Under the pieces are notes generated by a model. That model was not told where the DNA came from and did no database searches. It worked only from the letters and a program-made list of their open reading frames with translations. Shown one piece after another: positions 19,583 through 63,275 of a DNA stretch of 64,000 bases. The position numbers and the translations under genes are program-made. Source of the stretch: a virus; IMG/VR virus record IMGVR_UViG_3300031965_000018, positions 1-64,000 of that record. The stretch is one strand, 5' to 3'. Within the stretch, counting starts at the first letter, position 1, and each line of letters begins with the position of its first letter.

Positions 19583-19971
19583 CCGAACATGAACTCTTAG
19601 CCGAGTGTCTCAAATCACTAACTCCACTAGTCGAGTCAAACGGTGGGGTAGTGATCAAGCATGCCGACGCTAGCACGGCCGGTATACCAGACGTATCAGT
19701 AACGGTCAATGGCCGCACCTCATGGTGGGAGTTCAAACATGCGAATCCGAGGGTCAAAGGCACCGAGCTACAGCGACTCACGGCCCGACGTTTGGCCAAT
19801 GCGGGTATCTGCTGGTACGTAGTCTATCAGACGCTACCCTCCGGTACCACGACCCATCTCGTGCGTCCATCCGCTGTGGGCGTGAACGGACATTTCCAGT
19901 CCGATCACTCGCACGCCGGGATCGACCACCGTTTTGTCGTTAATTTCATTTTGGAGCGTCATGCCGCCTAA
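19570..19971 (+). CDS. VRR-NUC domain nuclease (PD-(D/E)xK)
   Basis: GIPDVSV...SWWEFKH...ELQRLTARRLANAG matches the VRR-NUC D...ExK...Q pattern. It pairs with the SNF2 helicase further downstream, as in many phages. Confidence 0.6.
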   Translation: MVEMTEHELLAECLKSLTPLVESNGGVVIKHADASTAGIPDVSVTVNGRTSWWEFKHANPRVKGTELQRLTARRLANAGICWYVVYQTLPSGTTTHLVRPSAVGVNGHFQSDHSHAGIDHRFVVNFILERHAA

Positions 19972-20704
19972 AGTCCCATCCTACCTCCCGCGTCCGCTAC
20001 GGCGGGCGACTCCGGCCCGCCCGAGGGTTTACCCTACTCCGGCCGCGAACGGCCCGCCTACGGGCGCTCCGGCCGTTTCTCGGGCCTCTCCGGCTCGGCC
20101 CGTCTCGGCGTTCCGGCCCGCTCCGACGACGGCGGAAACGGGCGGGATCTTTACCTATACCGGCCGGCACATTTCGCCGCTCCGACTGCGCACGGAGGAC
20201 GTCTGTATCGAGGATATTGCCCACGGCCTGGCCTTGATGAATCGGTTCGTCGGTCAGACGCCACGGCCCATCTCCGTCGCACAGCACTCGGTCTACGTCA
20301 GTCGTCTTTGCGAGTCACACGGCCCACGAGTCGCCCTTCAAGCCTTACTCCATGACGCCAGCGAAGCATATCTGGGCGATATGTCGAAGTGGGTGAAGGG
20401 GATGCCGGAGATGGAAGGGTTTCGGAAGGCGGAAGCGCAAGCTCAGATGACTATCTATGAGTCGTTTGGACTATCGTGTCTAGAGCATGAGAGTATCGAG
20501 GAAGCAGACCGGCTCATGGTACGCTATGAGGCGTACGCGAGTTGGGGCGCGAAGATGCCGCTGTTCCTCCGGCCGCGCTATCCGGTGCCGACGAAGGAAG
20601 AATGCGAGCGCGTGGGGATGTGGCGACCGTGGACGTGGCTCATCTCAGAGGAAAGTTTTCTGAACCAGTTCAACGCACTCGTTTCGGACTTAGAAGACCG
20701 ATGA
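19961..20704 (+). CDS. HD-domain phosphohydrolase (YfbR-like 5'-deoxynucleotidase type) with Pro/Ala-rich N-terminal extension
   Basis: VAQHSVYV ... LLHDASEAYLGD is an H...HD...D metal motif. No alternative in-frame start lies between the GC-rich insert and the HD core. Confidence 0.6.
   Translation: MPPKVPSYLPRPLRRATPARPRVYPTPAANGPPTGAPAVSRASPARPVSAFRPAPTTAETGGIFTYTGRHISPLRLRTEDVCIEDIAHGLALMNRFVGQTPRPISVAQHSVYVSRLCESHGPRVALQALLHDASEAYLGDMSKWVKGMPEMEGFRKAEAQAQMTIYESFGLSCLEHESIEEADRLMVRYEAYASWGAKMPLFLRPRYPVPTKEECERVGMWRPWTWLISEESFLNQFNALVSDLEDR
19988..20150. repeat. GC-rich hairpin element, copy C (inside the HD gene 5' region)
   Basis: Shares 17 identical nt cgaacggcccgcctacg (20046-20062) with 62259-62275. 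Also has the same CCGCCTACGGGC-type modules as the 41.2-kb and 62.2-kb loci. Confidence 0.6.
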
Positions 20705-32783: not shown

Positions 32784-32790
32784 GTTTATC

Positions 32791-32821
32791 GTTTATTTGA
32801 CGGTCGGTTTCGGTTTATAAT
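32791..32821 (+). promoter_or_regulatory. conserved promoter-like box P2
   Basis: gtttatttgacggtcggtttcggtttataat contains TATAAT at 32816-32821 and lies in an AT-rich gap. It is a near-duplicate of box P1 at 20710-20739. Confidence 0.45.
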
Positions 32822-36933: not shown

Positions 36934-37017
36934 GAGGAATACGAAACGATATGCGAGCGGTTCACTAGAACGGTTCGCGTATCGTCGCCCGACGAAACGG
37001 GCCTGATGAGGTTCCTC
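36934..37017 (+). ncRNA. type II hammerhead ribozyme motif, copy 1
   Basis: GAGGAAU-AC-GAAA, a 12-bp stem III hairpin, UC, GCCCG-ACGAAA-CGGGC, then CUGAUGAG-GUUCCUC. Predicted cleavage after C36986. Confidence 0.8.
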
Positions 37018-37019
37018 AA

Positions 37020-37364
37020 ATGGCTAACGCACGAACAATGCGACTTCAAGCGGCAGAACGGAAGCAACAGGACGCCGCCAAGAATCTTTCTCACCGCTAC
37101 TCCGTCGTCATTGTTCGGTTGAACGGGATGGTGATCTCGGGCGAAGTCGATGGCTTCTGGAAAGACGCGGTAGCGCGGGCGGAGGAAATGCTGAACGATA
37201 CGTTCTACTTCGACGCCCATGGTTACAAGACGGAAGGCGACCCGCGTGCGAATCCTTTCCGTGTGATCGTGGCGATGAGCGACGGTAGGACGACTGAAAC
37301 CGCGTCGTGCTATGAAGTCGGTTGGGATAACGGCCGGAGGATGTTAATGTCCGGTCGTCGGTAG
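37020..37364 (+). CDS. hypothetical protein (cassette 1)
   Basis: 114-aa track ORF. ATG lies 3 nt after ribozyme copy 1, and the stop TAG is embedded in copy 2. Confidence 0.55.
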   Translation: MANARTMRLQAAERKQQDAAKNLSHRYSVVIVRLNGMVISGEVDGFWKDAVARAEEMLNDTFYFDAHGYKTEGDPRANPFRVIVAMSDGRTTETASCYEVGWDNGRRMLMSGRR

Positions 37365-37433
37365 GCATACGAAACTCCGATGGGCCCTGACGGGATCGGA
37401 GTCGCCGGACTTAACCGGCCTGATGAGGTGCCT
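37363..37433 (+). ncRNA. type II hammerhead ribozyme motif, copy 2
   Basis: AGGCAU-AC-GAAA, CUCCGAU...AUCGGAG, UC, GCCGG-ACUUAA-CCGGC, then CUGAUGAG-GUGCCU. Cleavage after C37403. Confidence 0.85.
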
Positions 37434-37434
37434 T

Positions 37435-37632
37435 ATGTGGAAATGGAAGCTGGTAGTAAAGAAGACCGGACGAACGTGGGGTGTTTTTGACGAAGTGTCT
37501 GGTGACCTCGTTGAGGGCGGTTTCTTTCGACGCAGTGCGGCCGAGCAGTCTTTGCGCGATTGGGAAAAACAACTTTCGCAGGAAACAGCGGAAGACGCCG
37601 AGCGCGCGGCCGGTTGGGACCCCAACCCGTAG
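37435..37632 (+). CDS. hypothetical protein (cassette 2)
   Basis: MWKWKLVVKKTGRTWGVFDE... I take ATG 37435, not the track's ATG 37423, which is the AUG inside CUGAUGAG. Confidence 0.5.
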   Translation: MWKWKLVVKKTGRTWGVFDEVSGDLVEGGFFRRSAAEQSLRDWEKQLSQETAEDAERAAGWDPNP

Positions 37633-37692
37633 GCATACGAAATGGCGGAACAGTCCGCCATCGCCGGACTTAACCGGCCTGATGAGGTGCCT
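37631..37692 (+). ncRNA. type II hammerhead ribozyme motif, copy 3
   Basis: AGGCAU-AC-GAAA, UGGCGGA-ACAG-UCCGCCA, UC, GCCGG-ACUUAA-CCGGC, then CUGAUGAG-GUGCCU. Cleavage after C37662. Confidence 0.85.
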
Positions 37693-37693
37693 T

Positions 37694-37900
37694 ATGACTT
37701 TGATTAACACGACAACTCGCAACGCTTTCTGGCGCATCTCGCGCAAAGGTTCTACCGTCTACGTCATGTGGGGTCGAATCGGAACGCGCGGGCAGACCCG
37801 GCAGATCCGGTTCGCCAACGAGACTTCCGCCCGGACGTTCGTAGAGACTCGGATCGACTCCAAGATCGAGGATCGAGACTACGTGCCCGTGAGCCGGTAG
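37694..37900 (+). CDS. WGR domain protein (cassette 3)
   Basis: MTLINTTTRNAFWRISRKGSTVYVMWGRIGTRGQTRQIRFANETSARTFVETRIDSKIEDRDYVPV contains the WGRIG-x-GQ signature. Confidence 0.6.
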   Translation: MTLINTTTRNAFWRISRKGSTVYVMWGRIGTRGQTRQIRFANETSARTFVETRIDSKIEDRDYVPVSR

Positions 37901-37960
37901 GCATACGAAACTCCGCGATAGCGCGGAGTCGCCCGAATGGACGGGCCTGATGAGGTGCCT
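37899..37960 (+). ncRNA. type II hammerhead ribozyme motif, copy 4
   Basis: AGGCAU-AC-GAAA, CUCCGCG-AUAG-CGCGGAG, UC, GCCCG-AAUGGA-CGGGC, then CUGAUGAG-GUGCCU. Cleavage after C37930. Confidence 0.85.
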
Positions 37961-37961
37961 T

Positions 37962-38171
37962 GTGAATTTGAACTCGATCTCCTCCGATCTCCATCGTTAC
38001 AAGCAGGCGACGTTCCGAGTCGCATCTAGCGTCTACGCCGTAACCGGATCGGTGCGACTCGGTTATTCGCTTTGGCTCCTCTCGGAAGGTCGCTTCGGTC
38101 CAAAGCGTGATTTGATCGCAACATTTTCAACCCTCCACGCACTGGCCGGTTACGTCGAGGATAATTCATAG
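37962..38171 (+). CDS. hypothetical protein (cassette 4)
   Basis: GTG 37962 lies 1 nt after the ribozyme (VNLNSISSDLHRYKQ...). The stop TAG is fused to copy 5. Confidence 0.45.
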   Translation: MNLNSISSDLHRYKQATFRVASSVYAVTGSVRLGYSLWLLSEGRFGPKRDLIATFSTLHALAGYVEDNS

Positions 38172-38229
38172 GAACTAGAAACGGGCCGCTCTGGCCCGTC
38201 GCCGGAATAAACCGGCCTGATGAGGTTCC
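38171..38229 (+). ncRNA. type II hammerhead ribozyme motif, copy 5 (variant subclass)
   Basis: GGAAC-UA-GAAA, CGGGCC-GCUCU-GGCCCG, UC, GCCGG-AAUAAA-CCGGC, then CUGAUGAG-GUUCC. Position 11.1 is not the usual C. Cleavage after C38200. Confidence 0.65.
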
Positions 38230-38232
38230 AGC

Positions 38233-38625
38233 TTGACCCTCTTGAATGAGAGACTCCCAATGAACAAGCAGACGATTCGTTTCAACAACAACGGTGCTTC
38301 CCTCGACGTGCTGGCGCGGAACGGCAAGACCGGGATCAGCGTTTTCCTCCGGGTCAAGTCGCCCGGCCAGCGGGCGGTCATCGGGTGCCGTAACGTCTTC
38401 CTGCCGGCCAATGAGAAAACGGCGCAGGAGACGTTCGACCGTCTCGTGGCGGATGCCGAGTCGAAGGGCTGGACCCGAAAGACGGCCGGCACCGGCGCCA
38501 CCGCGTCGCAGTTCTCGGAAGTGCCCCTGCCGACGGCGCTGCCCGCGTCGGTGCCGCTCGCGCCGAAGGTGGTGAAGGCAAAGGTGGCCGAGGCTCCGAA
38601 GGCGAAGCTGGTGAGCCGGAAGTAA
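38233..38625 (+). CDS. hypothetical protein (cassette 5), Lys/Ala/Pro-rich tail
   Basis: 130-aa track ORF starting at TTG 38233, 7 nt after GAGG. The alternative ATG 38260 has its own GAGAG. Confidence 0.5.
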   Translation: MTLLNERLPMNKQTIRFNNNGASLDVLARNGKTGISVFLRVKSPGQRAVIGCRNVFLPANEKTAQETFDRLVADAESKGWTRKTAGTGATASQFSEVPLPTALPASVPLAPKVVKAKVAEAPKAKLVSRK

Positions 38626-38717: not shown

Positions 38718-38724
38718 TAACGCC

Positions 38725-38786
38725 AGGCATACGAAATGGCGGACTGTTCCGCCATCGCCGGAATAGACCGGCCTGATGAGGTGCCT
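38725..38786 (+). ncRNA. type II hammerhead ribozyme motif, copy 6
   Basis: AGGCAU-AC-GAAA, UGGCGGA-CUGU-UCCGCCA, UC, GCCGG-AAUAGA-CCGGC, then CUGAUGAG-GUGCCU. Cleavage after C38756. Confidence 0.85.
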
Positions 38787-38789
38787 AGG

Positions 38790-39107
38790 ATGAAAGTCAA
38801 GATTGGATTCGACACCGTCGTGCTCGGAACCGAAGTGTGCATCGAGTTCACCCGCGTCACCGAGGGACACCGCGAAAACTACGGCGCAGATGCGGATGGG
38901 AACCGTGGGATGATGGTTGGGATGATCGACTCCGACGACGCGGAAGACATCGTTGTGACGATGCCGTCAGGAACGGAGCGCCCGTTTGAGACGCTACCGG
39001 ACGCGGCGCAGCGGGCGGTGAGACGTGAAGTGGACCGCTACCTGGAGGAGAATGAGCCGGAAGCGGAAGACGAGCCGGAGCGGGACTGGGATGAGGAGAC
39101 GTCATGA
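38790..39107 (+). CDS. hypothetical acidic protein (cassette 6)
   Basis: MKVKIGFDTVVLGTEVCIEF... starts 3 nt after the ribozyme, at an internal ATG of the track ORF. Confidence 0.5.
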   Translation: MKVKIGFDTVVLGTEVCIEFTRVTEGHRENYGADADGNRGMMVGMIDSDDAEDIVVTMPSGTERPFETLPDAAQRAVRREVDRYLEENEPEAEDEPERDWDEETS

Positions 39108-39277: not shown

Positions 39278-39361
39278 ATGGATTCAATCTGGACATCGTT
39301 TATACTTGGAGGTATCTGGGCACTACTCTTGATGATCTACATTCGACTCGGAAAGCGCTGA
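39278..39361 (+). CDS. possible 27-aa membrane peptide
   Basis: MDSIWTSFILGGIWALLLMIYIRLGKR. The stop TGA is fused to ribozyme copy 7. Confidence 0.3.
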   Translation: MDSIWTSFILGGIWALLLMIYIRLGKR

Positions 39362-39419
39362 GGAACTAGAAACGGGCCGCTGGGCCCGTCGCCAGAATGA
39401 ACTGGCCTGAGGAGGTTCC
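39362..39419 (+). ncRNA. type II hammerhead ribozyme motif, copy 7 (variant subclass)
   Basis: GGAAC-UA-GAAA, CGGGCC-GCUG-GGCCCG, UC, GCCAG-AAUGAA-CUGGC, then CUGAGGAG-GUUCC, where N7 is G. Cleavage after C39390. Confidence 0.65.
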
Positions 39420-39420
39420 C

Positions 39421-39636
39421 GTGAAGTTTTTCGTAACAGCTATTCAACGCAGTCGCTCGACGCGCCGACGATGCGGCAAGGCGCACTCGTTCATCGCAGA
39501 GGCCCGAGGTAACGACTTGAGCGCTATCGAGGGCATCATTGAGCAGCGCTGGGATGACGAGCATCCCGGCTCGCATACCTTTCTGGAGATCATCGATCTG
39601 CGAGAGGCGAGAGAAGCGAGTGAGGTGACGTCATGA
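39421..39636 (+). CDS. hypothetical protein (cassette 7)
   Basis: GTG 39421 lies 1 nt after the ribozyme (VKFFVTAIQRSRSTRRRCGKAH...). Confidence 0.45.
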   Translation: MKFFVTAIQRSRSTRRRCGKAHSFIAEARGNDLSAIEGIIEQRWDDEHPGSHTFLEIIDLREAREASEVTS

Positions 39637-40103
39637 TGCGCGTCAAACTATTCGAGGTTCGGGACCGCGCGACGTTCATCGCGGTCTTGGCGGTGAAGCT
39701 CACCGCAGATGTACAACTCACGACAGACGATCTGGAGTTGGTCGGAGACGAGCGAATCGGGTCTCGCAACCCAGAGCACTTCCTACTCCGTCGCGCAGGC
39801 TATGCGAGTGCAGCCATTGCACCGTCATGGACCGGCGAGCCTTACGTGCTCGTGGCGAAGCTGGAACGCGCGCACTACGATCCCTTCAGCTGGGACTCGA
39901 TGACGATGGTTGGGGCCCACCGACATATCCGCGACAATTGGGACAAGCTATCGAGTGGTGATGTCATTGACGTCGAGTTTCTGCGCGGCGAGACGGACCA
40001 ACCGAAGGCATCCGAGTGGGTCACGGTATGGAACCGCTACACTACAATGCCTGACCCTCGACTCCCTGACCCGAACGACGTCAGAGAAACGGATGGAGAC
40101 TGA
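39633..40103 (+). CDS. hypothetical protein
   Basis: 156-aa track ORF, ATGA-coupled to its neighbours. Confidence 0.5.
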   Translation: MMRVKLFEVRDRATFIAVLAVKLTADVQLTTDDLELVGDERIGSRNPEHFLLRRAGYASAAIAPSWTGEPYVLVAKLERAHYDPFSWDSMTMVGAHRHIRDNWDKLSSGDVIDVEFLRGETDQPKASEWVTVWNRYTTMPDPRLPDPNDVRETDGD

Positions 40104-40993
40104 TGTTCATCACCCCAATGCTCGCGGCATCGATGCCGAAGACGCCCGTCACGATTCACCCGGGCGTCTTCTTGGTCGAAGAAAAGTATGATGGCCACCG
40201 ACTCGTCACTCACGTCGATAGCGACCACAGGGTTGCGGCGTGGAGTCGCTACGGGCTAGAGCGCGTTCTGCCCGTTCACGTCGTCAACGCCATTGCTCGG
40301 CTCTCGCCGGGCATCTACGATGGCGAACTGATCGTGCCGGGCAAACGATCCTACGGCGTCACTGAACTGGTCAATGGCTCCGAACTCGTCTATACCGTAT
40401 TCGACGTTCTGGAACTGCTCGGAACCTCGACCATCGCGAGCACTTACATGCAACGTCGGGCCTACCTAGAGGAGATGTCGAGGCATCGGCTCTTCAACGC
40501 CGACGGGATCCAACTGGCCGAGGTCACACCCGTTGACTCGGCAGACGACGTGCGGCGCTATCTGGATGCCGTCTGGAAGCGGGATGGCGAGGGACTAATC
40601 CTCAAGCGACTCGGGGCGCGCTACGTGCCCGGCAAGCGCCCGAAGGACGCCTGGATCAAGATAAAGGCATTGCGCTCGGCGGTCCTGACCGTCATCGGGT
40701 TCATTCCCTCGAAAGGACAAATCAATAACCGTGGGCCCTATGCGACGGTGGCGCTGCGTGATGACGAGGGCCATGAGACGACCGTCAAGACGCTCAACGA
40801 TGCGGAGTGTCGGAGGTTTGAGGAGGAAGCACCAAGGCTCCCAGAGATTGATGAGTTCTCACTCGGTCGGGTTTGCCCCGATCACCCCGCCATCGGCCGG
40901 AAGCTACGTATCGAGTATCAAGAAAGAACACCGGATGGGAATTATCGCCACCCTAGGTGGGATCGCTGGCACACCACAGATGATGAAGAGTAA
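40103..40993 (+). CDS. ATP-dependent DNA ligase
   Basis: Motif I EEKYDGHR, motif III YDGELIV, motif IV EGLILKRL and motif V AWIKIKA. Confidence 0.85.
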   Translation: MFITPMLAASMPKTPVTIHPGVFLVEEKYDGHRLVTHVDSDHRVAAWSRYGLERVLPVHVVNAIARLSPGIYDGELIVPGKRSYGVTELVNGSELVYTVFDVLELLGTSTIASTYMQRRAYLEEMSRHRLFNADGIQLAEVTPVDSADDVRRYLDAVWKRDGEGLILKRLGARYVPGKRPKDAWIKIKALRSAVLTVIGFIPSKGQINNRGPYATVALRDDEGHETTVKTLNDAECRRFEEEAPRLPEIDEFSLGRVCPDHPAIGRKLRIEYQERTPDGNYRHPRWDRWHTTDDEE

Positions 40994-41105
40994 AGAGTTC
41001 TATGCTTACGTGCCCTCGCCAGAAGAGTTGAGCTTGAACCGCACGGATCGCTTCCTCATCGACCCCGACGACATCACCATCGTCAAGACCGACTCGGAGC
41101 GGTAG
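40980..41105 (+). CDS. possible 41-aa protein
   Basis: MMKSKEFYAYVPSPEELSLNRTDRFLIDPDDITIVKTDSER. It overlaps the ligase stop and is the last + strand ORF before the terminator. Confidence 0.3.
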   Translation: MMKSKEFYAYVPSPEELSLNRTDRFLIDPDDITIVKTDSER

Positions 41106-41118: not shown

Positions 41119-41160
41119 AACCCGGCCTGGGCCTACCCGCTCAGCGCCGGGTTTCTTTGT
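41119..41160 (+). terminator. intrinsic terminator of the + strand arm
   Basis: aacccggc-N19-gccgggtt followed by tctttgt. Confidence 0.55.
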
Positions 41161-41195
41161 GCCCGGTGGAACCCTAGGTCGAACGACCTAACCAG

Positions 41196-41413
41196 CCCGC
41201 TACGCGGCCCGTAGGCGGGCGCGGGCGGGCCGGGAGGGTAAAGGGTCTAGGGCGGGTCGGAACGCGCCCGTAGGGCCGTCTAGCCCGGTTCCGGGCGGGT
41301 CCGGGCGCTGCCGCGACTCGCCGGAGGCCGCTACCGGCCCGTAGGCGGGCGCTCGGGAAGGCCCGGAGGGTAACGGGCCGACCGGCCCGGAACGCACCCC
41401 GTAGGGCCTACCG
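41196..41413. repeat. GC-rich hairpin element, locus A (two ~80-bp direct sub-copies)
   Basis: Sub-copies at 41206-41285 and 41335-41413 both open with cggcccgtaggcgggcgc. 41204-41229 is the exact reverse complement of 62197-62222. It lies between the convergent + and - arms. Confidence 0.75.
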
Positions 41414-41818
41414 CGCCGTCGCCCGTTCCGGCCCGAAGTCTCCGTAGGCCAGGATCGTCTCCACGTCGGCGTCCATGCGCTTGAACGAGTAGCGGTAAGG
41501 CTCTGCGAGGACTTTGAACAGGTTGAGCTGATCGTCGGTCAGATCGATGTAGCCGAACTGTTTGTTGAGGGTCGCTGACGCGTTATGCACGCCCTCGAAT
41601 CCGTCGATTGGTTCGTCAATGATCGCATCGCCCGGCGAGCCATCGCGTTTGCGGACGACGAAGTTCACGACCCACGCTTCTGTAGACATATTCGGGACCG
41701 AGTACACCCCGTCAATATCCTCATCCCAATTGCGCGGCGTCCCAAGCTTGAAGCGCAACCGCTTGTCCTCTCCTATGAAGAGGAGTCCGTCACTACCCAA
41801 TGTCGTCTCAATTGCCAT
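41408..41818 (-). CDS. hypothetical protein, last gene of tail arm
   Basis: MAIETTLGSDGLLFIGEDKRLRF... SD GAGGAG lies 6 nt before ATG 41818. Confidence 0.5.
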   Translation of the reverse strand: MAIETTLGSDGLLFIGEDKRLRFKLGTPRNWDEDIDGVYSVPNMSTEAWVVNFVVRKRDGSPGDAIIDEPIDGFEGVHNASATLNKQFGYIDLTDDQLNLFKVLAEPYRYSFKRMDADVETILAYGDFGPERATAR

Positions 41819-41919
41819 CTCAGACTCCTCATAAAGAGCGGACACGGAGCATGCGCCAACTCCGTGCCCGCCCAGCGGCGCATCTAGAGCAGGATTGCTC
41901 TAGCTCTGCGCCACGTCTC

Positions 41920-49615: not shown

Positions 49616-52461
49616 ACCTTCACTTCCGGTCTATCTACCAAAGTTTCCCGAGGTGACCATCCGTTCTTCCACACGATCTTCGGATCACCCGAGATGCCGA
49701 TGGCGATCGTCAGACCCTCGGTGCCCGACACGCCGCTCGGCACGCGCACCACCTTCTCAAAATCCGCACCACCAACGGGAGAGTCTTCCCAATTAGCATT
49801 CTTCCGTACAAGCACAACATCATCGGGCATGAACCTCGTGCCCCGGATAAACGCCTCTGCACACTCGCGCTGCACGGGGCCGGGAACATCCGACTGCAGG
49901 CCAGCTTGGCAATGAAATGTCATACCCGTAGCCGTGATACGATGCAGCACGCCAAAGGCCAGGGCGTAGTCGGGGTTGTTGAACCGCTGTCGCCCAGTCT
50001 CACGCCCATCGCGCTCATCAAAACCCATCGGCTCATCACTGATCGTAGGCTTATCCGTCTCCTCCTGAACGTAGGCAATATCCCACACGCGTCGAATGTT
50101 CTGCCAACCTTCACGCCCACGATCTAAATGCCGCACAACGTAAGCACCAAGCGGATTGCCATTTGCCTCGTCACTTTCAGCAGGACCGGCGGTCCAGAGC
50201 ATAGAAAGCCCTGATACTGACTCCTCTGCATATCGCTGGACATTGTCTGGATGGTGCAAGTCCTCATGCTGCGTACCATGCAGCGGTTCGTTGGCAAACT
50301 CGTAGATCGCCACAGGCTGATGAGCGGCACAGATACGGGCAACCTCCATCGCGTGATGCTGAAAGTCGTAGTCACGACTGGCCGAGTCCGCAACGGCCAC
50401 AACCTCAGCATATAGCCCATACTCGGCACACAGTTCCAACGCGCGCGGCAGAGCGTCCCGACCGTCCTCGGGCGACAAGTCGAACATGTGGACGACGGTC
50501 GAGAACACGCGCACCAGATTGAAGCCCGTCACCTGCGCCCAGGCGAGGAACTCACGCGCGTGAGCTTCATCACCGCGTGCGACGTCATAGACTAGCCGAA
50601 ATGCCGATACGCCCCGCCAGACAAACGGAGAGCCATCCTCACGTACTAGGCCGCGACCATCCACGTGCAATCTGGTTAACGCGACAGACGTGGGAGGTGG
50701 CATCACCACATCCGGCTCTTGCGGCTGTTCTTCGGCGGTATTAGTCGCCCAGATCGGCACGCCATCCGAGTACAGGACCGCGTTGCCGTCGTCCTGCAGC
50801 GACAAGTCAGGGTTGGTCCCGGCACTGCCCGAGGCCCACACCGCACGCCCCTCAGGGCCATACAGGACGAGATTACCATCAGGATGCAGCACGAGATCCA
50901 CAGTGATCTGGCCTGACGTCTGAGAGGCCCATAGCGGCGTGCCGTCACGACGATACAGAACTACGTTGCCGTCGTGCTGGTGGACGAGGTCGAAGCGGCC
51001 ATTCTGTGATACTAGTCCCTCGCCCGGCAGCAGTCGCTCCTCAGGCACGAGACGATGACGGGGTAGAGACGGTAATGGTGGCATAGGGGGCTCCGGCTCG
51101 TCGGGCTCATCAGGCTCGGGCTGAGGCTTCGAGGCGCGCAGGTCCAGGCGTGGCGAGGCGTCGGCTGCTGCGTACAATCGGCGATGCGATTCGCGTAGTT
51201 CCGGGAGACTCACCATGCCGTCACGGCCGTCGGCTCGCGTGTAGGGCCAGCACCAGACCAGGTCGATCTGCTCTTCGCGCACGAGCTGCCACAGCGCGCC
51301 CTGCTGATCAAGTACATGTTGCCGTGGCCAGTTGTAAGTCAGCAAATCGCCATGGATCTGGCGATAATAGGCCATTACGACCCCGACGCGGCGTGGACGC
51401 AGACGGCGCACCGCTTCCCGAATGCGCACCATGCTGAGAGGAATTGATTCCAATAGGCCATCACGCTTGACCGGATAACCGAAGATCAGCGGGATAACTT
51501 CAATGCCGTCCAGATCCACACCCGCAAAGGCCGTCTCAATATAGGGATACCCTGGCTCATCGTGGTAGGCCGCGAGCGGGACCCCATGCTGCCGACAGAG
51601 TTTCAATGCGGCGGGCAGATCGTCACGACCCAGTGTGTGAAACACAGCCACGATACTGGGATCAACCTGTGCTGCGTTTTCCGACACCTCAACAAGACGA
51701 GCAATCGGATTCGGCTCACCACTCGTGCAGACTAGGACCGGATGCAAGGTTGGCGCGAATGTCGGGACGCGCACCAATGTCATTGGTGCTACGTAAGGCG
51801 TAAAGTCCAATGAGTGAATAAACAACGCGTCTGCGATCCCATGCGGTATCTGCACGGGAATCGTACAGGTCCCATCCGCATGCGCGACCATCTGTGCCGG
51901 TAGTGATGAATAACCCGTCCAGACATGACGACAGGTCTCACCGTGCTTGCGGGCATACAGGCGCGTCACACCATTCGGTGCTGTCACGTCCTCACCCGAA
52001 ACCCAATCCCCGTCACGCACAACGCGTGTAATTATTACTGGCCCAAGATTCTCTCGGGAAAGAGCATCCGGCGACAGCGGGTGCGAGGTATCCCGCGACA
52101 CCCCCACCCGTCCGTCGAGATGCTCAAGTGTGTATGGCGCTTTAGCCGGCACCCAACTAACATCGCCGGCAGATGTCACCCAAACGGCGTATGGACCATG
52201 AACCTTGCCCGTGCCTAGTACCGTCACGCTGCGATCATGCCGCTTGATAAGATACCCACGGTCATCAGCTACACCGATACAAACAGCCCAATGGTCGCCA
52301 TCAGTGGTCTGTCGTGCGGCTACTAAACTGATCCCCTGTCCCGCCTCAACAGGCAGAAAGACCGGTGCGTCTTGCCCAAACGTAATCGGGCAAGGCACGA
52401 CGCGCTCGGGCATCGTGACTTCGAGTCGGTCGTCGGTGATCGAGGTAAAATAGCCCATCAC
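49597..52461 (-). CDS. multidomain tail-associated enzyme: N-terminal domains + bulb-type (B) lectin + GH5-like TIM-barrel
   Basis: Three lectin subdomain motifs (HQHDGNVVLY, LHPDGNLVLY, LQDDGNAVLY) are flanked by Pro/Glu linkers. A downstream YEFANEP resembles the GH5 NEP acid/base motif. Confidence 0.55.
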   Translation of the reverse strand: MMGYFTSITDDRLEVTMPERVVPCPITFGQDAPVFLPVEAGQGISLVAARQTTDGDHWAVCIGVADDRGYLIKRHDRSVTVLGTGKVHGPYAVWVTSAGDVSWVPAKAPYTLEHLDGRVGVSRDTSHPLSPDALSRENLGPVIITRVVRDGDWVSGEDVTAPNGVTRLYARKHGETCRHVWTGYSSLPAQMVAHADGTCTIPVQIPHGIADALFIHSLDFTPYVAPMTLVRVPTFAPTLHPVLVCTSGEPNPIARLVEVSENAAQVDPSIVAVFHTLGRDDLPAALKLCRQHGVPLAAYHDEPGYPYIETAFAGVDLDGIEVIPLIFGYPVKRDGLLESIPLSMVRIREAVRRLRPRRVGVVMAYYRQIHGDLLTYNWPRQHVLDQQGALWQLVREEQIDLVWCWPYTRADGRDGMVSLPELRESHRRLYAAADASPRLDLRASKPQPEPDEPDEPEPPMPPLPSLPRHRLVPEERLLPGEGLVSQNGRFDLVHQHDGNVVLYRRDGTPLWASQTSGQITVDLVLHPDGNLVLYGPEGRAVWASGSAGTNPDLSLQDDGNAVLYSDGVPIWATNTAEEQPQEPDVVMPPPTSVALTRLHVDGRGLVREDGSPFVWRGVSAFRLVYDVARGDEAHAREFLAWAQVTGFNLVRVFSTVVHMFDLSPEDGRDALPRALELCAEYGLYAEVVAVADSASRDYDFQHHAMEVARICAAHQPVAIYEFANEPLHGTQHEDLHHPDNVQRYAEESVSGLSMLWTAGPAESDEANGNPLGAYVVRHLDRGREGWQNIRRVWDIAYVQEETDKPTISDEPMGFDERDGRETGRQRFNNPDYALAFGVLHRITATGMTFHCQAGLQSDVPGPVQRECAEAFIRGTRFMPDDVVLVRKNANWEDSPVGGADFEKVVRVPSGVSGTEGLTIAIGISGDPKIVWKNGWSPRETLVDRPEVKVWRIGR

Positions 52462-52464
52462 AAA

Positions 52465-53240: not shown

Positions 53241-53261
53241 GTTAGTCTCCTTGAAATACGG

Positions 53262-53615: not shown

Positions 53616-53626
53616 CGGTTAGGTCC

Positions 53627-54088: not shown

Positions 54089-54117
54089 TTCGTCTCTTTC
54101 TTCGTATTCTTTGCGGT

Positions 54118-54666: not shown

Positions 54667-54676
54667 GCGTTTTCTC

Positions 54677-54805: not shown

Positions 54806-54813
54806 TTCGTCTC

Positions 54814-57515: not shown

Positions 57516-60500
57516 TTAGACGCCAGCGCCCCATCGTTCAAGCTCCTCTGGAATCTCGGGAAGAATGCTGCGTGTGAGTTTTGTCGCTCCTCCGCTATCT
57601 AGCCACTGATCGACGCTATCACCATCCCACGCAATGATCTCGATAGTGTTGTTAGTTGTTCGCGTCCCGCTACCACTGCTACCATTACCATCGGGAGCAG
57701 GAGCCGCCGCATCCGGTTCCGGCGCATCGCCAACGACTGGCTCGCGTGGTTGTGCGGTGCCGGTCGGTGGAATGCCCTCACCGATCTGGCGATAGGTATA
57801 GGGAATGATCACCGGCTTGATCTGAGTCAGACCTATGAGCTTGAACTCCTCGATGAGATCACCAATCTTGAGAATCAAGGCATCGATAGCGTCTACGAGC
57901 GGAGTCTTGAAGTCCAGGCGGCTTGTATCAACAAGCTTTTCGCCAAACTCGTCAGTCAAACCACCGGCGTCTATCAACTTGTCAATAATGGGTTCGAGAT
58001 TAGACGGCAGCGTGAGACCCATCGTCAGTGCGTCGGTCACAAGACCCTGGATCCGCTGCGCCATGCTTAATATCGCATCCTCGACGCCGCTATCTTCTAG
58101 GGCTGGACCCAAATCACCGAAGATCACGCCCAAATCATCGGAGGCACGAGACAGAATGTCGAAGTCTTTTACAATCTGAGCTGCAATTTCGTCAATCTGC
58201 AGCTGCTTGACTTTCGGACCAAGCTCGTCAAGCTTAATTCCGTAGCGGCCCGCCGCATCCTCTACCTCCTGTAGCGAGGGCACACCCACTTCCGCCAACC
58301 CGAGAAGCGCCGCAGCATTATCCTCCGTCAGCTGCTTCGACTCGATTAACGTCGTAAGGATCGGGCCCATCGCCGGTGGAATCTTCCCACCCGCATCGAG
58401 CGTAGCGGCTAGCCACGCATTGACGTCCGTCGCCATCCCGCGTGTAATCGACGAAGCACTGAAACCCGCGTCACGCATCCGCATAAACGAATCGACAATC
58501 GGCTGCGCGCCGTCCGCTGCCGCTTGCATGCGTAGCATCGGGTCTTCGATATCTGACCACGCTAACCCGTACTGTTCAACATCGGCCTTCAACGATTCGA
58601 CAGCCTTCTCTTGCTTCTCCAAAGCTAGCGTGATAGCATCGATAGCCTTCTTGGCGCCTTCCTTATCGCCGCGACCCGTGCGCTGCGTCAGATTGATCCA
58701 CAGCCGCTCGCCCTCATCTCCAAGGTCATTTAGCTTCTGGCGCAACTCGTCAAAGCCACTACCGGCTGCCGCCGTATCGAATGACTCGGCAAACTTTTCC
58801 ACCTCACGACGACCCGCGCTCATCGCTCGGATAAACCCGGTCACCGCTCCAACAACGCTACCAATTGCAATACCCCACGGGCCAAACGCTGCTCCGGCTT
58901 GCGCTCCGGCCATAGCGCCCTGAAACGCTCCGGCAGACTTTGACCCAGCTTCGGACGCAGCTTCCCAAACGTTGATCGCACCTTGATAGATGACAGCAGC
59001 TGCCTGCATTCCAGCCGCAGCCTTTTGCGCAGCTGATGCATCCTTACTCATCAAGACGCTAAGAGATCCGAAGCGCCCACCAATCTCGCGTGGGCCTCCC
59101 TCTTCTGCCGTGCGATTGAGATTCGTTTCGCTTCCACCGATTTGCCGCGTGAGACTCCGAGCCGTCCCCAACTGCACGATCATCTGGCCAATGGCCGACG
59201 CTATGCCGCCAATATTCTCACCCGCGATCTGACCAAGGCGCACAAAGCTATCCGACAGGATATTAAGCGACTCGTCAGCCAGATCGATCTTGAGTTGTTC
59301 GACTAGCGAATCCCGTTTTACTTTTGCCATGCGGTCAACGGAAGCATAATATGCCTCAGCATGCTTCCCGCTCTGCCCGTATGCGGCCTTCGTTGTCAAC
59401 GCCCACTGCTCAATCTCACGCTTCGCAAATCCAATGCTCGTCATCGTACGCTGCGCGACGGACGTTTCCAACTCCATTTCAATTTTGTTAAGCTCAGATG
59501 CGCTCGTGGATAGCCCCGTCCAACCGGGAATCATCCCAAGAGCCTTGCCGAGTTCCTTCGCAGGCGCAACTAGCGAGGCCCACTTAGACATCGCCCGAGC
59601 AATCTTCGTCTGCGTAATATCAACAGCTGGTCCCAAAGCTGCGAATATTGACGTGAGATTTTTCGCCGACGACGCAACCAGCGTAGCGTTAGCTGGCATA
59701 CGGTAGAATGCGGCCAAAACAGAATTGAGTACTGGCGTGAGTTTCGCACCGCTCTCCTGGAGGTCTATGAGTTCCTTGCCGATTTGCTTCAGCTGAATCG
59801 TCGTCAGTGGGCCGATAGCCGTCAGCTGCCGGACAACGGTATCGAGTAGCTTGATCTCCTCGGCAACCTTCTTACCCGACAACTCATCAAACTTACTCTG
59901 AACAATCTCGCTCATCTGCTCGGCAGCAGATTTTGCGTTTTCGTTCAAGACGATTGATGCCGCTACTTGCTTATTGAGTTCGTCGGTAATCTCCCCGAGG
60001 TTCGTCGGAATGGGAAGTGGCTTGACCGTAGCGGCCTGGTCAAACAACGTTGCAGGACCAACAGAATCAATAGGCGCGCCAGCAAGCAACCCAACTGAAC
60101 CGACAAATGATTGGACACGACCTAATTGAACCGAGTTAATCGTCCCAGTTATCAGAAAGAAAGTGCGCCACGCATCAACGCCGGCAAGGACATGCCCCTT
60201 CATTAGCGCTAGAGCGCTATTGATACCGATGAGCCCCATCTCCGTGAACGTTAACTCTGATGGGATATCTGCAAGTGTCCGAACAAAATCACCGACAGCC
60301 TTACCCGCGTCTTTAAACCCGGTAACAAACACAGCCTTCAACGTTGAGCCAGTTTCCCGAGCGACATCCTTGATCGCGGTTAGTCCCTTCGTTACTTCAT
60401 CTTTCGCAACTACTGCCAAGTCTTTCATCTCATCTCGCGCAAGTATGACAATGGATTTAACCCCATTAAGAGCATGCTTTGCGAGATCGCCTACTGCCGT

Positions 60501-62177
60501 CCACTTCAAGAGTGCGGCCCCGACGCCCGTGATTGCAAGAATCGTCGCGCTAATCGGGAGACTCACGCCAGTGGCGGCGACTCCCAGGGTGCGAAGCGCG
60601 TTTGTCGCAATCGATGCGCCAAATCCACGCGAGAACAAAGACCCTAGCGCCGTGCCTGCACGCGAAAGAAGTCCGACCTTTGTGGCTGCGGGTGTCGCGG
60701 CCGCGGCAACCTTATTTATATTGCCGCTAAGCGGCAGGAGCATCTGCGACCCAGACGCGGCCATGAAGTTAAATGCCAATTGTTCGCCAGCCGCGAACTT
60801 CACCGCCTTAGATACTGTTCCAACAGCAGCTGCATTAGCTATAAGAGCGCCAGTATTGATCGTCGCAGCGGTAGTCGACGATGTAAAGCCCTTTATCAAT
60901 AAGCCAAGTAATGGCGTTAATGTCTTGACTCCAGAGCCGATGCCCCCTATCGCCCAAAGAACCGGACCGGCCGCCGCCAATAGACCTAACAATGCAAAAC
61001 CAGTTAACTGGATAGGTAGGGGCAACTTCCCGAATCCTTCAACAAGTCGAAGGACGCCATTGAGCATCGGCTCAACGGCCTTCACAACATCCAAGAGAAT
61101 TGGTAGTAGGATATCGCCTAGCTTCTGGCCGATAACAACGATCTTCTGCTGAAGCTGTGCCCAGGCAAATCCTGCTTTGTTAACACCCTCGGTTTGCTCG
61201 ACAAATGCTTCCGCCGCCGACCCTGAAGCCTCCGACATCGCTGCCAGTTTCGTACTGAAGACATCGGCCTGGCCGCCCGAGAGCGCAAAGATCGCTGGGA
61301 GAGACTCGACGTTCGCAAACAGCTTACCAATAGCCTCGGTGCTACCGTCGGTAGTCCCGATAACCTTCTGAATCGACCCAACGAGACCATCTTGTTCAAT
61401 AGACGCAGCAGCTGACTCGACCCCGAGGGTCTTCAGCGCCTTCTGCATGTCATCGGTAGGCTTCAGTAGCGCAGCCATCGCGCCACGCATCTGCGTCGTG
61501 ACTTCACGAGCACTGCCGGTTACGCCAGTGAGGGTAGCGAAGCTTGCGAACAACTCCTCTTGCGTAACATTGAGCGCGGCTGCGATGGGCGTGACTTTAC
61601 CAATAGCTCCGGCAAGCTCAGGGAACGTCGTCTGGCCGAGCTTCACCGTAGCAAAGGCAAGATCTGCGGCCTTCTGGACGGCCGCTGCCGTCGTATCTCC
61701 GTAGCCCTTCGTGACTGCCGATGTGAGCTCGATAGCTTCCGTTGTTGACGCCAATCCGGCGGCTGCGGCCCGAGCGTTGATATCTACGATCTTGACCGTG
61801 TCTGCCGTATCACCAAACGCAGAGATAACTTGGTACAGACCATCGGCCAAGTCGCCAGTAGACTTCCCGGTCGCAACCGCCATCTCTTGGACAGCGGTCT
61901 TCAATTCATTGACACGATCTATGTTACCCGGGATCAGTGTGGCGACATTCGCCATACTCGCGTTGAATTGCGTCGCCATGACTACGGCCGCAGTTCCGAT
62001 CCCGATCAAAGGCAGCGTAACGCCTACGGTGAGGCTCTTACCGATTGAGGACAGCTGTGGGCCAAGGGTAGCAAAGCGCTGGCCGAAACCATCGAGTTTC
62101 TGCTGAGCAAGGTCCAGCCCGCTCGACAGTCTATCATCGAGTTCAATGGTCCCAAAGAGTGTGCCGATATCTAGCAC
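57516..62177 (-). CDS. tail tape measure protein
   Basis: 1553 aa, Ala/Gly/Leu-rich and helical. It has a TP901-type core (ATGKSTGDLADGLYQVISAFGD) and a GTG start with GGGAG SD. Confidence 0.9.
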   Translation of the reverse strand: MLDIGTLFGTIELDDRLSSGLDLAQQKLDGFGQRFATLGPQLSSIGKSLTVGVTLPLIGIGTAAVVMATQFNASMANVATLIPGNIDRVNELKTAVQEMAVATGKSTGDLADGLYQVISAFGDTADTVKIVDINARAAAAGLASTTEAIELTSAVTKGYGDTTAAAVQKAADLAFATVKLGQTTFPELAGAIGKVTPIAAALNVTQEELFASFATLTGVTGSAREVTTQMRGAMAALLKPTDDMQKALKTLGVESAAASIEQDGLVGSIQKVIGTTDGSTEAIGKLFANVESLPAIFALSGGQADVFSTKLAAMSEASGSAAEAFVEQTEGVNKAGFAWAQLQQKIVVIGQKLGDILLPILLDVVKAVEPMLNGVLRLVEGFGKLPLPIQLTGFALLGLLAAAGPVLWAIGGIGSGVKTLTPLLGLLIKGFTSSTTAATINTGALIANAAAVGTVSKAVKFAAGEQLAFNFMAASGSQMLLPLSGNINKVAAAATPAATKVGLLSRAGTALGSLFSRGFGASIATNALRTLGVAATGVSLPISATILAITGVGAALLKWTAVGDLAKHALNGVKSIVILARDEMKDLAVVAKDEVTKGLTAIKDVARETGSTLKAVFVTGFKDAGKAVGDFVRTLADIPSELTFTEMGLIGINSALALMKGHVLAGVDAWRTFFLITGTINSVQLGRVQSFVGSVGLLAGAPIDSVGPATLFDQAATVKPLPIPTNLGEITDELNKQVAASIVLNENAKSAAEQMSEIVQSKFDELSGKKVAEEIKLLDTVVRQLTAIGPLTTIQLKQIGKELIDLQESGAKLTPVLNSVLAAFYRMPANATLVASSAKNLTSIFAALGPAVDITQTKIARAMSKWASLVAPAKELGKALGMIPGWTGLSTSASELNKIEMELETSVAQRTMTSIGFAKREIEQWALTTKAAYGQSGKHAEAYYASVDRMAKVKRDSLVEQLKIDLADESLNILSDSFVRLGQIAGENIGGIASAIGQMIVQLGTARSLTRQIGGSETNLNRTAEEGGPREIGGRFGSLSVLMSKDASAAQKAAAGMQAAAVIYQGAINVWEAASEAGSKSAGAFQGAMAGAQAGAAFGPWGIAIGSVVGAVTGFIRAMSAGRREVEKFAESFDTAAAGSGFDELRQKLNDLGDEGERLWINLTQRTGRGDKEGAKKAIDAITLALEKQEKAVESLKADVEQYGLAWSDIEDPMLRMQAAADGAQPIVDSFMRMRDAGFSASSITRGMATDVNAWLAATLDAGGKIPPAMGPILTTLIESKQLTEDNAAALLGLAEVGVPSLQEVEDAAGRYGIKLDELGPKVKQLQIDEIAAQIVKDFDILSRASDDLGVIFGDLGPALEDSGVEDAILSMAQRIQGLVTDALTMGLTLPSNLEPIIDKLIDAGGLTDEFGEKLVDTSRLDFKTPLVDAIDALILKIGDLIEEFKLIGLTQIKPVIIPYTYRQIGEGIPPTGTAQPREPVVGDAPEPDAAAPAPDGNGSSGSGTRTTNNTIEIIAWDGDSVDQWLDSGGATKLTRSILPEIPEELERWGAGV

Positions 62178-62390
62178 AATACTCCCGTCCTATCCGCCCG
62201 CCCGCGCCCGCCTACGGGCCGCGAGCCGTCCGGGCGACCCTTACCCGCCCGAGCGACCCGAACGGCCCGCCTACGCCCGCTAGCCGGGCCGGTTCCCGGC
62301 CCGCCGCCGGGCCGGTTCCCGGCCCGCCGCCGAACGACTCCCGCCCACCTACGGCCCGATCCTCCCGGCCCGCGCCGAACCGGGAGGATC
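62178..62390. repeat. GC-rich hairpin element, locus B (between tail chaperone and tape measure)
   Basis: 62197-62222 is the reverse complement of 41204-41229. A 23-bp tandem ccgggccggttcccggcccgccg x2 lies at 62284-62329. An 11-bp stem gatcctcccgg/ccgggaggatc lies at 62358-62390. Confidence 0.75.
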
Positions 62391-63275
62391 ATGGCTTCAG
62401 TGACCCTGTCTTCTGGCCCAGCGAAGCGTTCTGCACGAAGCACCAATCGGTGATTAGCATCTCCATCTCGGCCACCGTCTGCTTCTTCGGTTCCACCTTT
62501 GGTTTCTTTTCCTCTGGGTCGAAGTTCAGTACGAAGTCGCTGATGGGTAGAGCCTCCGGGTGCTTCTTGGTATCTCGGTTGATGTTCCATAGCGTCTGCG
62601 TGATATACGCCAGCTGATACGTATCCCGTTCCAGTGGCTCCAACTCCACAAACGCCATCCATCTAAGAAACTCCTCCCACGAGATACCGCGCAGCATCCG
62701 ATGCACATCTGCTCGACGCATATGTGCCGCCAACCGAAAGGCGAAACGATCTAGGGCGCTTCGCCTGAACCGTTTTTTGCTTCTTCTCTCGCCTCCTCAG
62801 TCTCCGCCTTCTGAACGTCGTCCATGATCGCTTCGAGCTTCCTCTCGTCCACGCCCGCCGCGTCCACGGCATCCGCCAGTTTGCGAAGTTCAGCTGAGAG
62901 CTTCTGCAACTTCACTGGGTCGGTGCCCGCTTCCTTCAACTGCGTGGAAATGTCCACGGACTTCGATCCGAATCCGTTCAGCTTGAGGATGACGTTGTCC
63001 ACACAGTGACGAAGCACTGCCGCGTTTTTCTTCTTGAACGCTTCCAACTGATTCAAGTTCCCGATGCGATTACCGTTCTCGTCCACGAGGCTCTGGATAA
63101 AAATCCGCAGACCCGCCGTGTGCTTGCCCGGACCCTGGTTGTTCTTGATGAACTCCATCATCGTCCCAGCATCCAACGAACCGAAACGAACTGTCCCACC
63201 CCACGCTTCTGCCGTAGCAAATGTTACGTCATCAGCGTCGAGTATTTCCTTGATTGAGAGAATCTTTCCGCTCAC
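62389..63275 (-). CDS. tail assembly chaperone GT fusion (via -1 frameshift at 62772-62778)
   Basis: The -1 frame is open from the slippery site into track ORF 62389..62733 (…KKRFRRSALDRFAFRLAAHMRRADVH…). That ORF otherwise has only a TTG start and no SD. Confidence 0.6.
62751..63275 (-). CDS. tail assembly chaperone G
   Basis: 174-aa ORF between the major tail and tape measure genes. GTG start with SD GGAGGTG. Confidence 0.65.
   Translation of the reverse strand: MSGKILSIKEILDADDVTFATAEAWGGTVRFGSLDAGTMMEFIKNNQGPGKHTAGLRIFIQSLVDENGNRIGNLNQLEAFKKKNAAVLRHCVDNVILKLNGFGSKSVDISTQLKEAGTDPVKLQKLSAELRKLADAVDAAGVDERKLEAIMDDVQKAETEEAREEAKNGSGEAP
62772..62778 (-). promoter_or_regulatory. -1 programmed frameshift heptamer A_AAA_AAC
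   Basis: Minus-strand GCA AAA AAC lies in the G frame 21 nt before the G stop, a canonical X_XXY_YYZ site. Confidence 0.6.

Follow-up and report, generated by a model that had tools for sequence, protein, structure and literature searches.

A dispersed GC-rich mosaic repeat at three loci of an uncultivated tailed phage

What kind of element can lie at an operon junction, between two tail genes and inside a coding region of one phage genome? The question is raised by three short GC-rich tracts in IMG/VR record IMGVR_UViG_3300031965_000018, of which we analysed positions 1 to 64,000 (64,000 nt, the window in what follows). The phage is uncultivated and tailed, with a circularly assembled genome of ~69 kb. 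A first-pass annotation of this DNA had described the tracts as built from shared modules, and had likened them to a small mobile or REP-like (repetitive extragenic palindrome) element or to a family of RNA processing or termination structures. The three tracts are as follows.

41196..41413, no strand assigned: Locus A, 218 nt, 79% GC, G-rich on the + strand, two pairs of a and b units (a-b-a-b)
62178..62388, no strand assigned: Locus B, filling the whole 211-nt gap from the stop of the tail chaperone T gene to the tape-measure start, ~81% GC, C-rich on the + strand
19985..20145, + strand: Locus C, ~76% GC, with a C-rich sense strand, coding for the greater part of a 62-residue P/A/R-rich N-terminal extension

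We confirmed a genuine dispersed repeat family with three loci in this one genome. The placement given earlier was right, with A between convergent gene arms, B between the Phage_tail_T gene and the tape measure, and C inside an HD/YfbR-like open reading frame (ORF). So was the description of the tracts as much richer in GC than their surroundings (79%, 81% and 76% for A, B and C, against 57.8% for the window). In terms of composition, third codon positions of the window reach 65% GC (GC3), four-fold sites 66% (GC4) and other intergenic DNA 47-60%, so the tracts reflect neither the background nor the neutral expectation.

The reported reverse complementarity of 41204-41229 and 62197-62222 is exact, and the full exact match between A and B extends to 28 nt (41203-41230 against 62223-62196), within a 35-nt arm that is 91% complementary. 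The 17-nt identity of B and C (62259-62275 and 20046-20062) also holds. In 300 dinucleotide shuffles of the tracts the longest A/B match averaged 10.8 nt with a maximum of 15, and the B/C maximum was likewise 15 nt; the longest A/C match, of 14 nt, is by itself within chance. B is a chimera, with 62196-62223 matching A and 62259-62275 matching C.

With the copies aligned in one orientation, the tracts share a three-box module of 64-66 nt, CTACGG-N19-24-TTACCC-N19-25-GCCCGCCTACG. The search pattern CTACGG-N15-30-TTACCC-N15-30-GCCCGCCTACG has four matches in the window, all inside the three tracts, and none in 100 dinucleotide-preserving shuffles. The objection of a simple GC bias therefore fails, since the 28-nt and 17-nt matches and the four module copies exceed all shuffles. 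The copies, and the two sub-copies of Locus A, are located as follows.

19997..20062, + strand: module copy of Locus C
62212..62275, + strand: module copy of Locus B, left part as in A (28 nt), right part as in C (17 nt)
41197..41277, - strand: sub-copy 1 of Locus A, holding the module copy at 41210-41273 (-)
41328..41408, - strand: sub-copy 2 of Locus A, holding the module copy at 41340-41404 (-)

The two direct sub-copies of about 80 bp had been noticed before, and they are 81% identical over 84 nt. As for the modules first proposed, the palindrome and the three-box module are confined to the tracts: the 14-mer GCCCGTAGGCGGGC or its complement occurs four times in the 64 kb, and the 11-mer GCCCGCCTACG five times without variation, in each case only at these loci. 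GGGTAA and CCGG-TTC-CCGG taken singly are not specific to the element, and the former occurs 32 times in the window.

The tracts are laid out as head-to-tail units, each opening with CCGTAGG on the G-rich strand, 59-71 nt apart. In Locus A these boxes stand at 41209, 41268, 41339 and 41399; the box-to-box spacing across A, B and C is 59, 60, 59 and 60 nt, and within any one tract all boxes have the same orientation. Two types of unit were found, with type a reading CCGTAGGCGGGC...GGGTAA...CGGAACGC and type b carrying CCGG-loop-CCGG hairpins. The conserved columns of the module alignment are the boxes only. Relative to the genes, copies occur in both orientations, A overlaps no supported gene, and the ORFs over the box read it in different frames; on our best reading of the sequence, the element would thus be kept at the DNA or RNA level and not at the protein level.

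Locus B separates two late genes, and contains two further hairpin features.

62389..62733, - strand: tail assembly chaperone T ORF (Pfam Phage_tail_T)
57516..62177, - strand: tape measure (PhageMin_Tail) of 1553 aa, beginning with the GTG at 62177; GGGAG lies 5 nt upstream
62283..62328: the 23-nt unit GCCGGGCCGGTTCCCGGCCCGCC, present twice in exact tandem, each copy a GGGCCGG-GAA-CCGGCCC hairpin
62358..62390: inverted repeat of 11 bp without mismatch, GATCCTCCCGG / CCGGGAGGATC, immediately behind the T stop

On the - strand, the order within B is the 11-bp hairpin, a b-like unit with the 23-nt tandem hairpins, an a unit and a partial a unit. This last unit terminates in GGATAGGACGGGAG, which is the Shine-Dalgarno sequence of the tape-measure gene, and the ends of B share a 17-nt direct repeat (76% identical) around the Shine-Dalgarno-like GGGAG. 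A 73-codon R/G-rich ORF runs over B on the - strand, from an ATG at 62392 to a stop at 62171; it overlaps the T stop at its start (ATGA) and closes 4 nt after the tape-measure GTG.

The same junction is tight in six of the seven other genomes compared, against 211 nt here. The T stop and the tape-measure start are 1 nt apart in one of them (L007, TAAcATG; T 53% identical), and the spacing is -17 to +4 nt in five of six further T-bearing IMG/VR contigs. The sixth (IMGVR_UViG_3300049856_000246, L293, 3250-3448) has a gap of 199 nt at 50% GC, unlike Locus B, with no B-like tract in it. Relative to these genomes B is thus shown to be an insertion, into a junction that is normally tight and presumably translationally coupled.

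Locus C lies in a gene of the early/middle arm.

19961..20704, + strand: HD / YfbR-like 5'-deoxynucleotidase homologue, ATG at 19961 with GGAG 4 nt upstream

In the tract, a single a unit is accompanied by a partial unit that ends in GGTAGGATGGGAC and by a more degenerate CCGG-rich remainder. Most of ~4,800 HD homologues have 180-190 aa and begin with M-x(1-3)-I-x-T-[YF], 2-4 residues ahead of the core. This canonical start aligns with GGIFTY at residues 61-66 here, where the core begins at residue 63, and the window and a few relatives carry a long P/A/R-rich extension that ends in (R)GGI. In the window and four relatives no in-frame ATG, GTG or TTG lies closer than 42 codons to the core on its upstream side, and the Locus C tract must therefore be translated; the canonical ATG is retained in the relative L090. 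The extension-bearing proteins group together in a neighbour-joining tree, which indicates that the extension was probably gained once.

Locus A is flanked by the ends of the two convergent arms, with the following features around it.

40103..40993, + strand: ATP-dependent DNA ligase, last large gene of the + arm
40980..41105: 41-codon ORF after the ligase
41135..41162, + strand: terminator-like hairpin (41135-41152) and T-run, closing the + (early) arm, upstream of the tract and separate from it
41175..41190: small hairpin TAGGTC-GAAC-GACCTA between terminator and tract, read directly
41408..41845, - strand: 145-aa ORF closing the - (late) arm, without a family match; the stop abuts the tract

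The last ~12 codons of the late-arm ORF include one extra CCTACGG box (41442). A comparison with the equivalent ORFs of relatives found no homology (19-24% identity). A 65-codon open frame covers Locus A. The TAGGTC/GACCTA hairpin motif is also carried by the relative L092 (TAGGTCGCCCGACCTA).

The relatives in question are syntenic metagenomic phages with ligases 60-65% identical and HD proteins 45-58% identical to those of the window. GC-rich tracts were found at the 5' end of the HD gene in five of them (L004, L005, L088, L089 and L090), where the extensions have 64-76% GC overall and 74-84% in their richest 100-nt windows, and at the convergent junction after the ligase in three (L091, L092 and L292). 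The phage of L292 has the junction tract and an HD gene without extension. At the A and C positions a GC-rich tract is present in all close relatives examined, which makes both sites old and inherited and not the product of recent hops.

In terms of sequence, the tracts of relatives share a vocabulary (CCGG-rich stretches, CGAACG, CTTACCC and C-TA-G/C boxes), and certain 15-17-nt strings are common to tracts of the group. The 7-8-mers shared between phages are barely over the shuffled expectation, and a profile hidden Markov model of the window module has no significant match in the relatives' tracts. Occurrence in related genomes, raised as a check on the element, thus applies to GC-rich tracts at the A and C positions and not to the module itself. 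A profile from the four copies recovers only those copies in the 2.8 Mb of fetched DNA, all relatives included, and by this measure the module is restricted to this genome. Judging from these alignments, the lineage conserves the position and composition of the tracts, not their sequence. Tracts at different loci of the same genome are far more alike than orthologous tracts across genomes, the pattern expected of intragenomic copying or gene conversion.

The strict three-box pattern has no matches in the viral contigs of IMG/VR and three single matches in 185,579 bacterial and archaeal species genomes; the one examined (L003) lies inside a 904-aa ORF and is chance-like. A relaxed pattern has 58 single matches in JGI metagenomes, and only one (L136) is similar in style. 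The core CGAACGGCC(N)GCCTACG, of 16-17 bases, gives scattered single matches in GC-rich genomes. An origin from a host REP was rejected, with only chance-like single matches in the species genomes and metagenomes. The L136 tract (JGI Ga0302324_100022535, 6745-6895) is an intergenic stretch of 72% GC directly after an HNH gene, with boxes similar in style (CCTACGG, GTTACCC and GGCCGAACGGCCGCCTACGG). Its contig is an unrelated phage-like one of 53% GC, with Pol III alpha, HNH endonuclease and radical SAM genes and no proteins in common with the window.

Next, we compared the element with known repeats. As defined in the literature, a REP has an unpaired GTAG (or CGTC) tag at one end beside a stem of 6-13 bp with a short loop, and REPs usually exceed 100 copies per chromosome, often as inverted dimers, in association with RAYTs (REP-associated tyrosine transposases) (PMC3733652, Di Nocera et al. 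2013). By the same description, REPs and bacterial interspersed mosaic elements (BIMEs) are short GC-rich imperfect GTAG palindromes combined with other blocks as mosaics, mostly 3' of ORFs, between unidirectional or convergent genes and at times intragenic, and are thought to function as RNA hairpins (PMC3733652); the tracts resemble them in composition, mosaic build and placement. The architecture differs. Here a 5-bp hairpin (GCCCG-TAGG-CGGGC) has GTAG in its loop, not as an unpaired terminal tag, and the sequence 3' of it (GCGGGCGCGGGCGGG) is not self-complementary. A chromosome usually carries over 100 REPs; this 69-kb phage has five boxes, at three loci. The units are head-to-tail with a period of ~60 nt, whereas REPs are mostly inverted dimers; and where BIMEs alternate REPs with conserved linkers, the boxes here all point one way at spacings of 59-71 nt.

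Other small repeats show partial likeness. Rickettsia palindromic elements (RPEs) are small repeats found between genes and in frame within protein genes, where they are translated as a tolerated segment; the element likewise has copies between genes and in frame inside a gene, but RPEs are 100-150 bp long, have a family consensus and occur in many copies in AT-rich bacterial genomes, and a relation to them in sequence is not expected. The GC clusters of yeast mitochondria are GC-rich modular islands, intergenic and in frame in var1, which probably spread through recombination or gene conversion, having no transposase of their own. Like them, the tracts are GC-rich modular islands in a compact genome that is less rich in GC; the yeast clusters differ in being organellar, in units of 30-50 bp and in an extreme AT background. 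To our knowledge the element has no homology to them. Miniature inverted-repeat transposable elements (MITEs), including the mycobacteriophage mobile elements (MPME), are small non-autonomous repeats in phages that are missing at the same site in relatives. The likeness there is a small repeat in a phage genome, absent, in the case of B, from the orthologous junction of relatives; MITEs have terminal inverted repeats (TIRs) and target-site duplications, whereas here there are no inverted repeats at the tract ends and no convincing target duplications. Intrinsic terminators and RNase III hairpins are likewise GC-rich and stable, and are found between late genes or where operons end, but here there is no U-tract, conserved stem or covariation, and one copy is translated.

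No transposase, RAYT or HUH gene was found among the Pfam hits listed for the second assembly of this phage and for the relatives, or in our own scans, which covered part of the window ORFs. The mobile or REP-like view thus stood in part: the nucleotide-level repeat family, the REP/BIME look and the insertion at B relative to relatives were borne out, while REP architecture, bacterial copies and TIRs or target duplications were not found, and the A and C sites are inherited. By sequence comparison, the element appears REP/BIME-like in look, yet outside every family tested.

One further candidate was a localized nick site. Phages of the phiKMV group have the nick consensus 5'-CGACxxxxxCCTA/CTCCGG-3', with all sites on one strand (PMC3517423). 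Only its 3' half, CCTACTCCGG, including the nick position, is present here, once (20033-20042), and the CGAC position reads AGGG; the remaining module copies read CCCTCCCGG, CCCTCCGGG or CCCGCCCGA at the half-site. A nick site of this type was rejected, and the half-site match is probably a coincidence.

As for RNA structure, the consensus fold of the four modules reaches ~-15 kcal/mol with a covariation term of ~0 on both strands, and the sole feature kept across modules is the 5-bp box hairpin. Against GC-matched shuffles the fold z-scores are -3.9 for the B transcript, -2.0 for A on the + strand, -0.8 for A on the - strand and -1.1 for C; tract stability derives mostly from composition. No T-run follows the tract hairpins: near A there is a single terminator-like site, beyond the limits of the tract, and B has none. 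Rfam gave no match in the tracts at the gathering score or at E <= 1. The transcript strand is G-rich at B and C-rich at C and at the late-operon 3' end of A. A conserved RNA structure was therefore rejected on the weak consensus fold and near-zero covariation. The proposal of an RNA processing or termination family was not supported either, as there is no conserved fold or covariation and no T-run, and the copies face both ways relative to transcription.

Three other common features were also rejected. A shared coding module does not fit copies that are read on differing strands and in differing frames. G-quadruplex motifs (G3+N1-7 x4) are not in every tract, with two in A, one in B, matches in L004, L091 and L005, and none in C, L092, L088, L292, L089 or L090. 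Lastly, a drift of 5-hydroxymethyldeoxyuridine (5-hmdU) phages to high GC in unconstrained DNA is at odds with the GC4 and intergenic values given above.

We favour, with a probability of roughly 40%, a hairpin-rich spacer repeat that acts at the nucleic-acid level and has spread between permissive junctions by recombination. The three tracts would be copies of one genome-specific GC-rich mosaic repeat, made of units of ~60 nt that each open with the small palindrome GCCCG-TAGG-CGGGC, plus variable CCGG-type hairpin blocks. The ancestral site would probably be A, the convergent junction behind the ligase, with C as a second old site and B as a later copy inserted via recombination. The chimeric make-up of B suggests that recombination or gene conversion between tracts has spread and homogenised the repeat. 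Copying may have used phage or host recombination functions; a transposase of the element's own was not seen in the scans described. Which way the copying went, how recombination brought it about and what effect any tract has are our inferences.

The repeat would act through composition and bulk hairpin stability, not through a specific fold. At A it could give the late-operon transcript a structured, protected 3' end and buffer the convergent transcription units against each other. At B it would break the direct coupling of T to the tape measure, and could lower or re-time tape-measure synthesis; the 73-codon frame could restore the coupling. At C the tract would be tolerated and translated into a disordered linker.

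Several observations weigh against this account. The intrinsic-type terminator of the + arm falls outside the Locus A tract. The translated tract at C cannot be an RNA barrier, so one mechanism does not cover the three sites. One open frame in three is expected in DNA so rich in GC, and the 73-codon frame is thus weak evidence. GC-rich tracts of ~200-280 nt persist at two positions over ~60% protein identity, which may reflect a specific, unrecognised function. The module is carried by one genome only, of which the two assemblies are 100% identical and so offer no population polymorphism. Finally, the invariant box of 11-14 nt and the spacing of ~59-60 nt suit a protein-binding array at least equally.

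Such an array would hold sites for a sequence-specific protein on DNA or RNA, with the operator-like GCCCG-CCTA-CGGGC (candidate box GCCCGCCTACGGGC) every ~60 nt and the rest as spacer, and the protein might have a role in genome organisation, replication termination, packaging or regulation. The 11-mer that is invariant in five copies and found nowhere else in the 64 kb, the regular spacing and the boxes as the only conserved alignment columns speak for it, and a function independent of orientation would fit the copies observed. We consider it unlikely, though a serious competitor: the box is not conserved in the equivalent tracts of relatives though the tracts persist, no candidate binding protein was identified, and there is no obvious rationale for sites inside a gene or at the T/tape-measure junction. 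A true miniature mobile element (a MITE, REP or GC cluster), for which a transposase, a RAYT-like enzyme or a homing endonuclease would act in trans, would insert at gene boundaries and in frame, as RPEs and yeast GC clusters do. B as a clean insertion at a junction tight in relatives, a composition foreign to the genome, the GTAG palindrome, the copy in frame and the imperfect direct repeat at the ends of B are all in its favour. There are only three loci, two of them positionally conserved in relatives, and no TIRs or convincing target duplications; no transposase, RAYT or HUH gene appears in the annotated parts of the phage or relatives, and the species genomes and viral contigs hold no copies beyond chance-like matches. 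This leaves a mobile element somewhat less probable than the array.

Specific structured RNAs, that is terminators, RNase III/E sites or regulatory leaders, are improbable to a similar degree. The tracts do lie at operon ends or between genes, the B transcript folds better than its shuffles and has the perfect 11-bp hairpin after the T stop and two identical 7-bp hairpins, and the phage seems to use RNA processing elsewhere, judging from seven hammerhead-like motifs. The four modules, on either strand, lack a conserved fold or covariation, A and C fold no better than GC-matched shuffles, no U-tract or Rfam match was found, and opposite strands are transcribed at B and at the other two loci. 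The two remaining explanations are essentially excluded. Low-complexity GC-rich DNA from slippage or mutational bias, with no real element, would account for 7-8-mers shared across phages at barely more than shuffled frequency, for a folding energy that is mostly compositional and for the A/C match of chance length; the longer matches and the fourfold module exceed all shuffles, and the tracts surpass both four-fold sites and other intergenic DNA in GC. Likewise, modules as coding units for proline/arginine-rich disordered peptides in three genes would explain why open frames cover all tracts (the C extension, the 73-codon frame of B with its ATGA overlap and the 65-codon frame of A). Such frames are expected in DNA of 80% GC; opposite module strands are read (G-rich in B, C-rich in A and C), the frames differ (CCC GCC TAC against CCG CCT ACG), and the unit spacings (59, 71 and 43 nt) are not divisible by three.

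In terms of gene content, the phage is of siphovirus type. Portal, large terminase and a VapE-type primase/helicase are on the - strand. The early/middle arm on the + strand includes a family-A DNA polymerase, the HD/YfbR-like hydrolase, a 5-hmdU DNA kinase, a thymidylate-synthase homologue, a SNF2 helicase and the ATP-dependent ligase, and the late arm on the - strand comprises chaperone T, the 1553-aa tape measure and distal tail genes. The second public assembly (Logan SRR9008719, L006) is 100% identical to the window, and the 4.8 kb present only there hold no additional copies of the element. Relative to the assembled genome the window is circularly permuted (window 1-3885 and 52389-64000 compared with L006), and the second assembly bridges window position 64000 to position 1 by these 4.8 kb, with head-decoration, methyltransferase and glycosyltransferase genes. 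Searches of 50,697 phage records by megablast and blastn found no nucleotide relatives among cultured phages, and the DNA polymerase is ~25% identical to that of the nearest cultured-phage record.

The 5-hmdU DNA kinase (HMUDK_hel) and the thymidylate-synthase homologue are candidate hypermodification genes (region coordinates 24608-25582 and 27280-28293), and Dam and TAGT domains occur in relatives (L005 and L088 listed). With the HD protein at 19961-20704, these genes and domains point to a thymidine-hypermodifying lineage without a cultured member.

Four other features of the window were observed. Seven copies of 70-90 nt with a hammerhead type II layout lie on the + strand between 36934 and 39428.

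36934..37024, + strand: hammerhead-like copy 1
37362..37441, + strand: hammerhead-like copy 2
37630..37700, + strand: hammerhead-like copy 3
37898..37968, + strand: hammerhead-like copy 4
38169..38238, + strand: hammerhead-like copy 5
38724..38794, + strand: hammerhead-like copy 6
39342..39428, + strand: hammerhead-like copy 7

The layout consists of stem II closed by both ends, CGAAA, a stem III hairpin, (G/A)UC, a stem I hairpin and CUGANGAG. Folded without constraints, each of the seven adopts the hammerhead three-way junction, and stems I-III vary in sequence among copies with pairing intact in every fold. Rfam gives a single sub-threshold Hammerhead_II match (38178-38223, 25.4 bits, gathering score 37). 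At least in copies 2 and 3 (start codons 37423 and 37693), the core GAGG and stem II form the Shine-Dalgarno sequence of the next small ORF. The arrangement suggests ribozyme processing of the early polycistronic mRNA.

Furthermore, clusters of a 9-nt periodic repeat, (ACCTTACCT)n with six 46-nt members, occupy 10570-10924 between a putative small terminase ORF and VapE, and could be iterons, a pac site or a promoter region. A motif of 23-29 nt, TTTATTTGAACGCGGGTTTCGCGTATACT, is found at 20711-20739 (+), 13171-13199 (inverted), 32790-32812 (+) and 13350-13372, at gene boundaries of the early/middle arm, for example directly after the HD gene, and may be a phage promoter or terminator signal. 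Lastly, a weak Rfam match to skipping-rope at 619-725 on the - strand (23.6 bits, gathering score 36.7, E = 0.48) is probably due to chance.

As for the wider meaning, the tracts can mislead gene callers, with spurious ORFs of 65-73 aa and long N-terminal extensions, and they mark module boundaries in this uncultivated phage group. Their persistence at two junctions across ~60% protein identity, despite the complete turnover in sequence, hints at selection on composition or structure and not on sequence. It is a doubtful but possible generalisation that a thymidine-hypermodifying siphovirus lineage keeps GC-rich tracts at fixed junctions, with complete sequence turnover between genomes and homogenisation within them, or that modified-DNA phages carry an element encoded by composition. 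The latter might be, for instance, a barrier to transcription, replication or nucleases at module boundaries. If the turnover holds, the element would be a phage counterpart of the mitochondrial GC clusters or of the Rickettsia RPEs, one that could enter a coupled gene pair and an ORF without a transposase. If the spacer-repeat reading is true, compact phage genomes can hold and internally copy GC-rich mosaics of a REP/BIME-like kind, which may enter a coding region or the gap between coupled tail genes and leave those genes functional. This would extend to phages a class of repeats described mainly for bacterial chromosomes and organelles.

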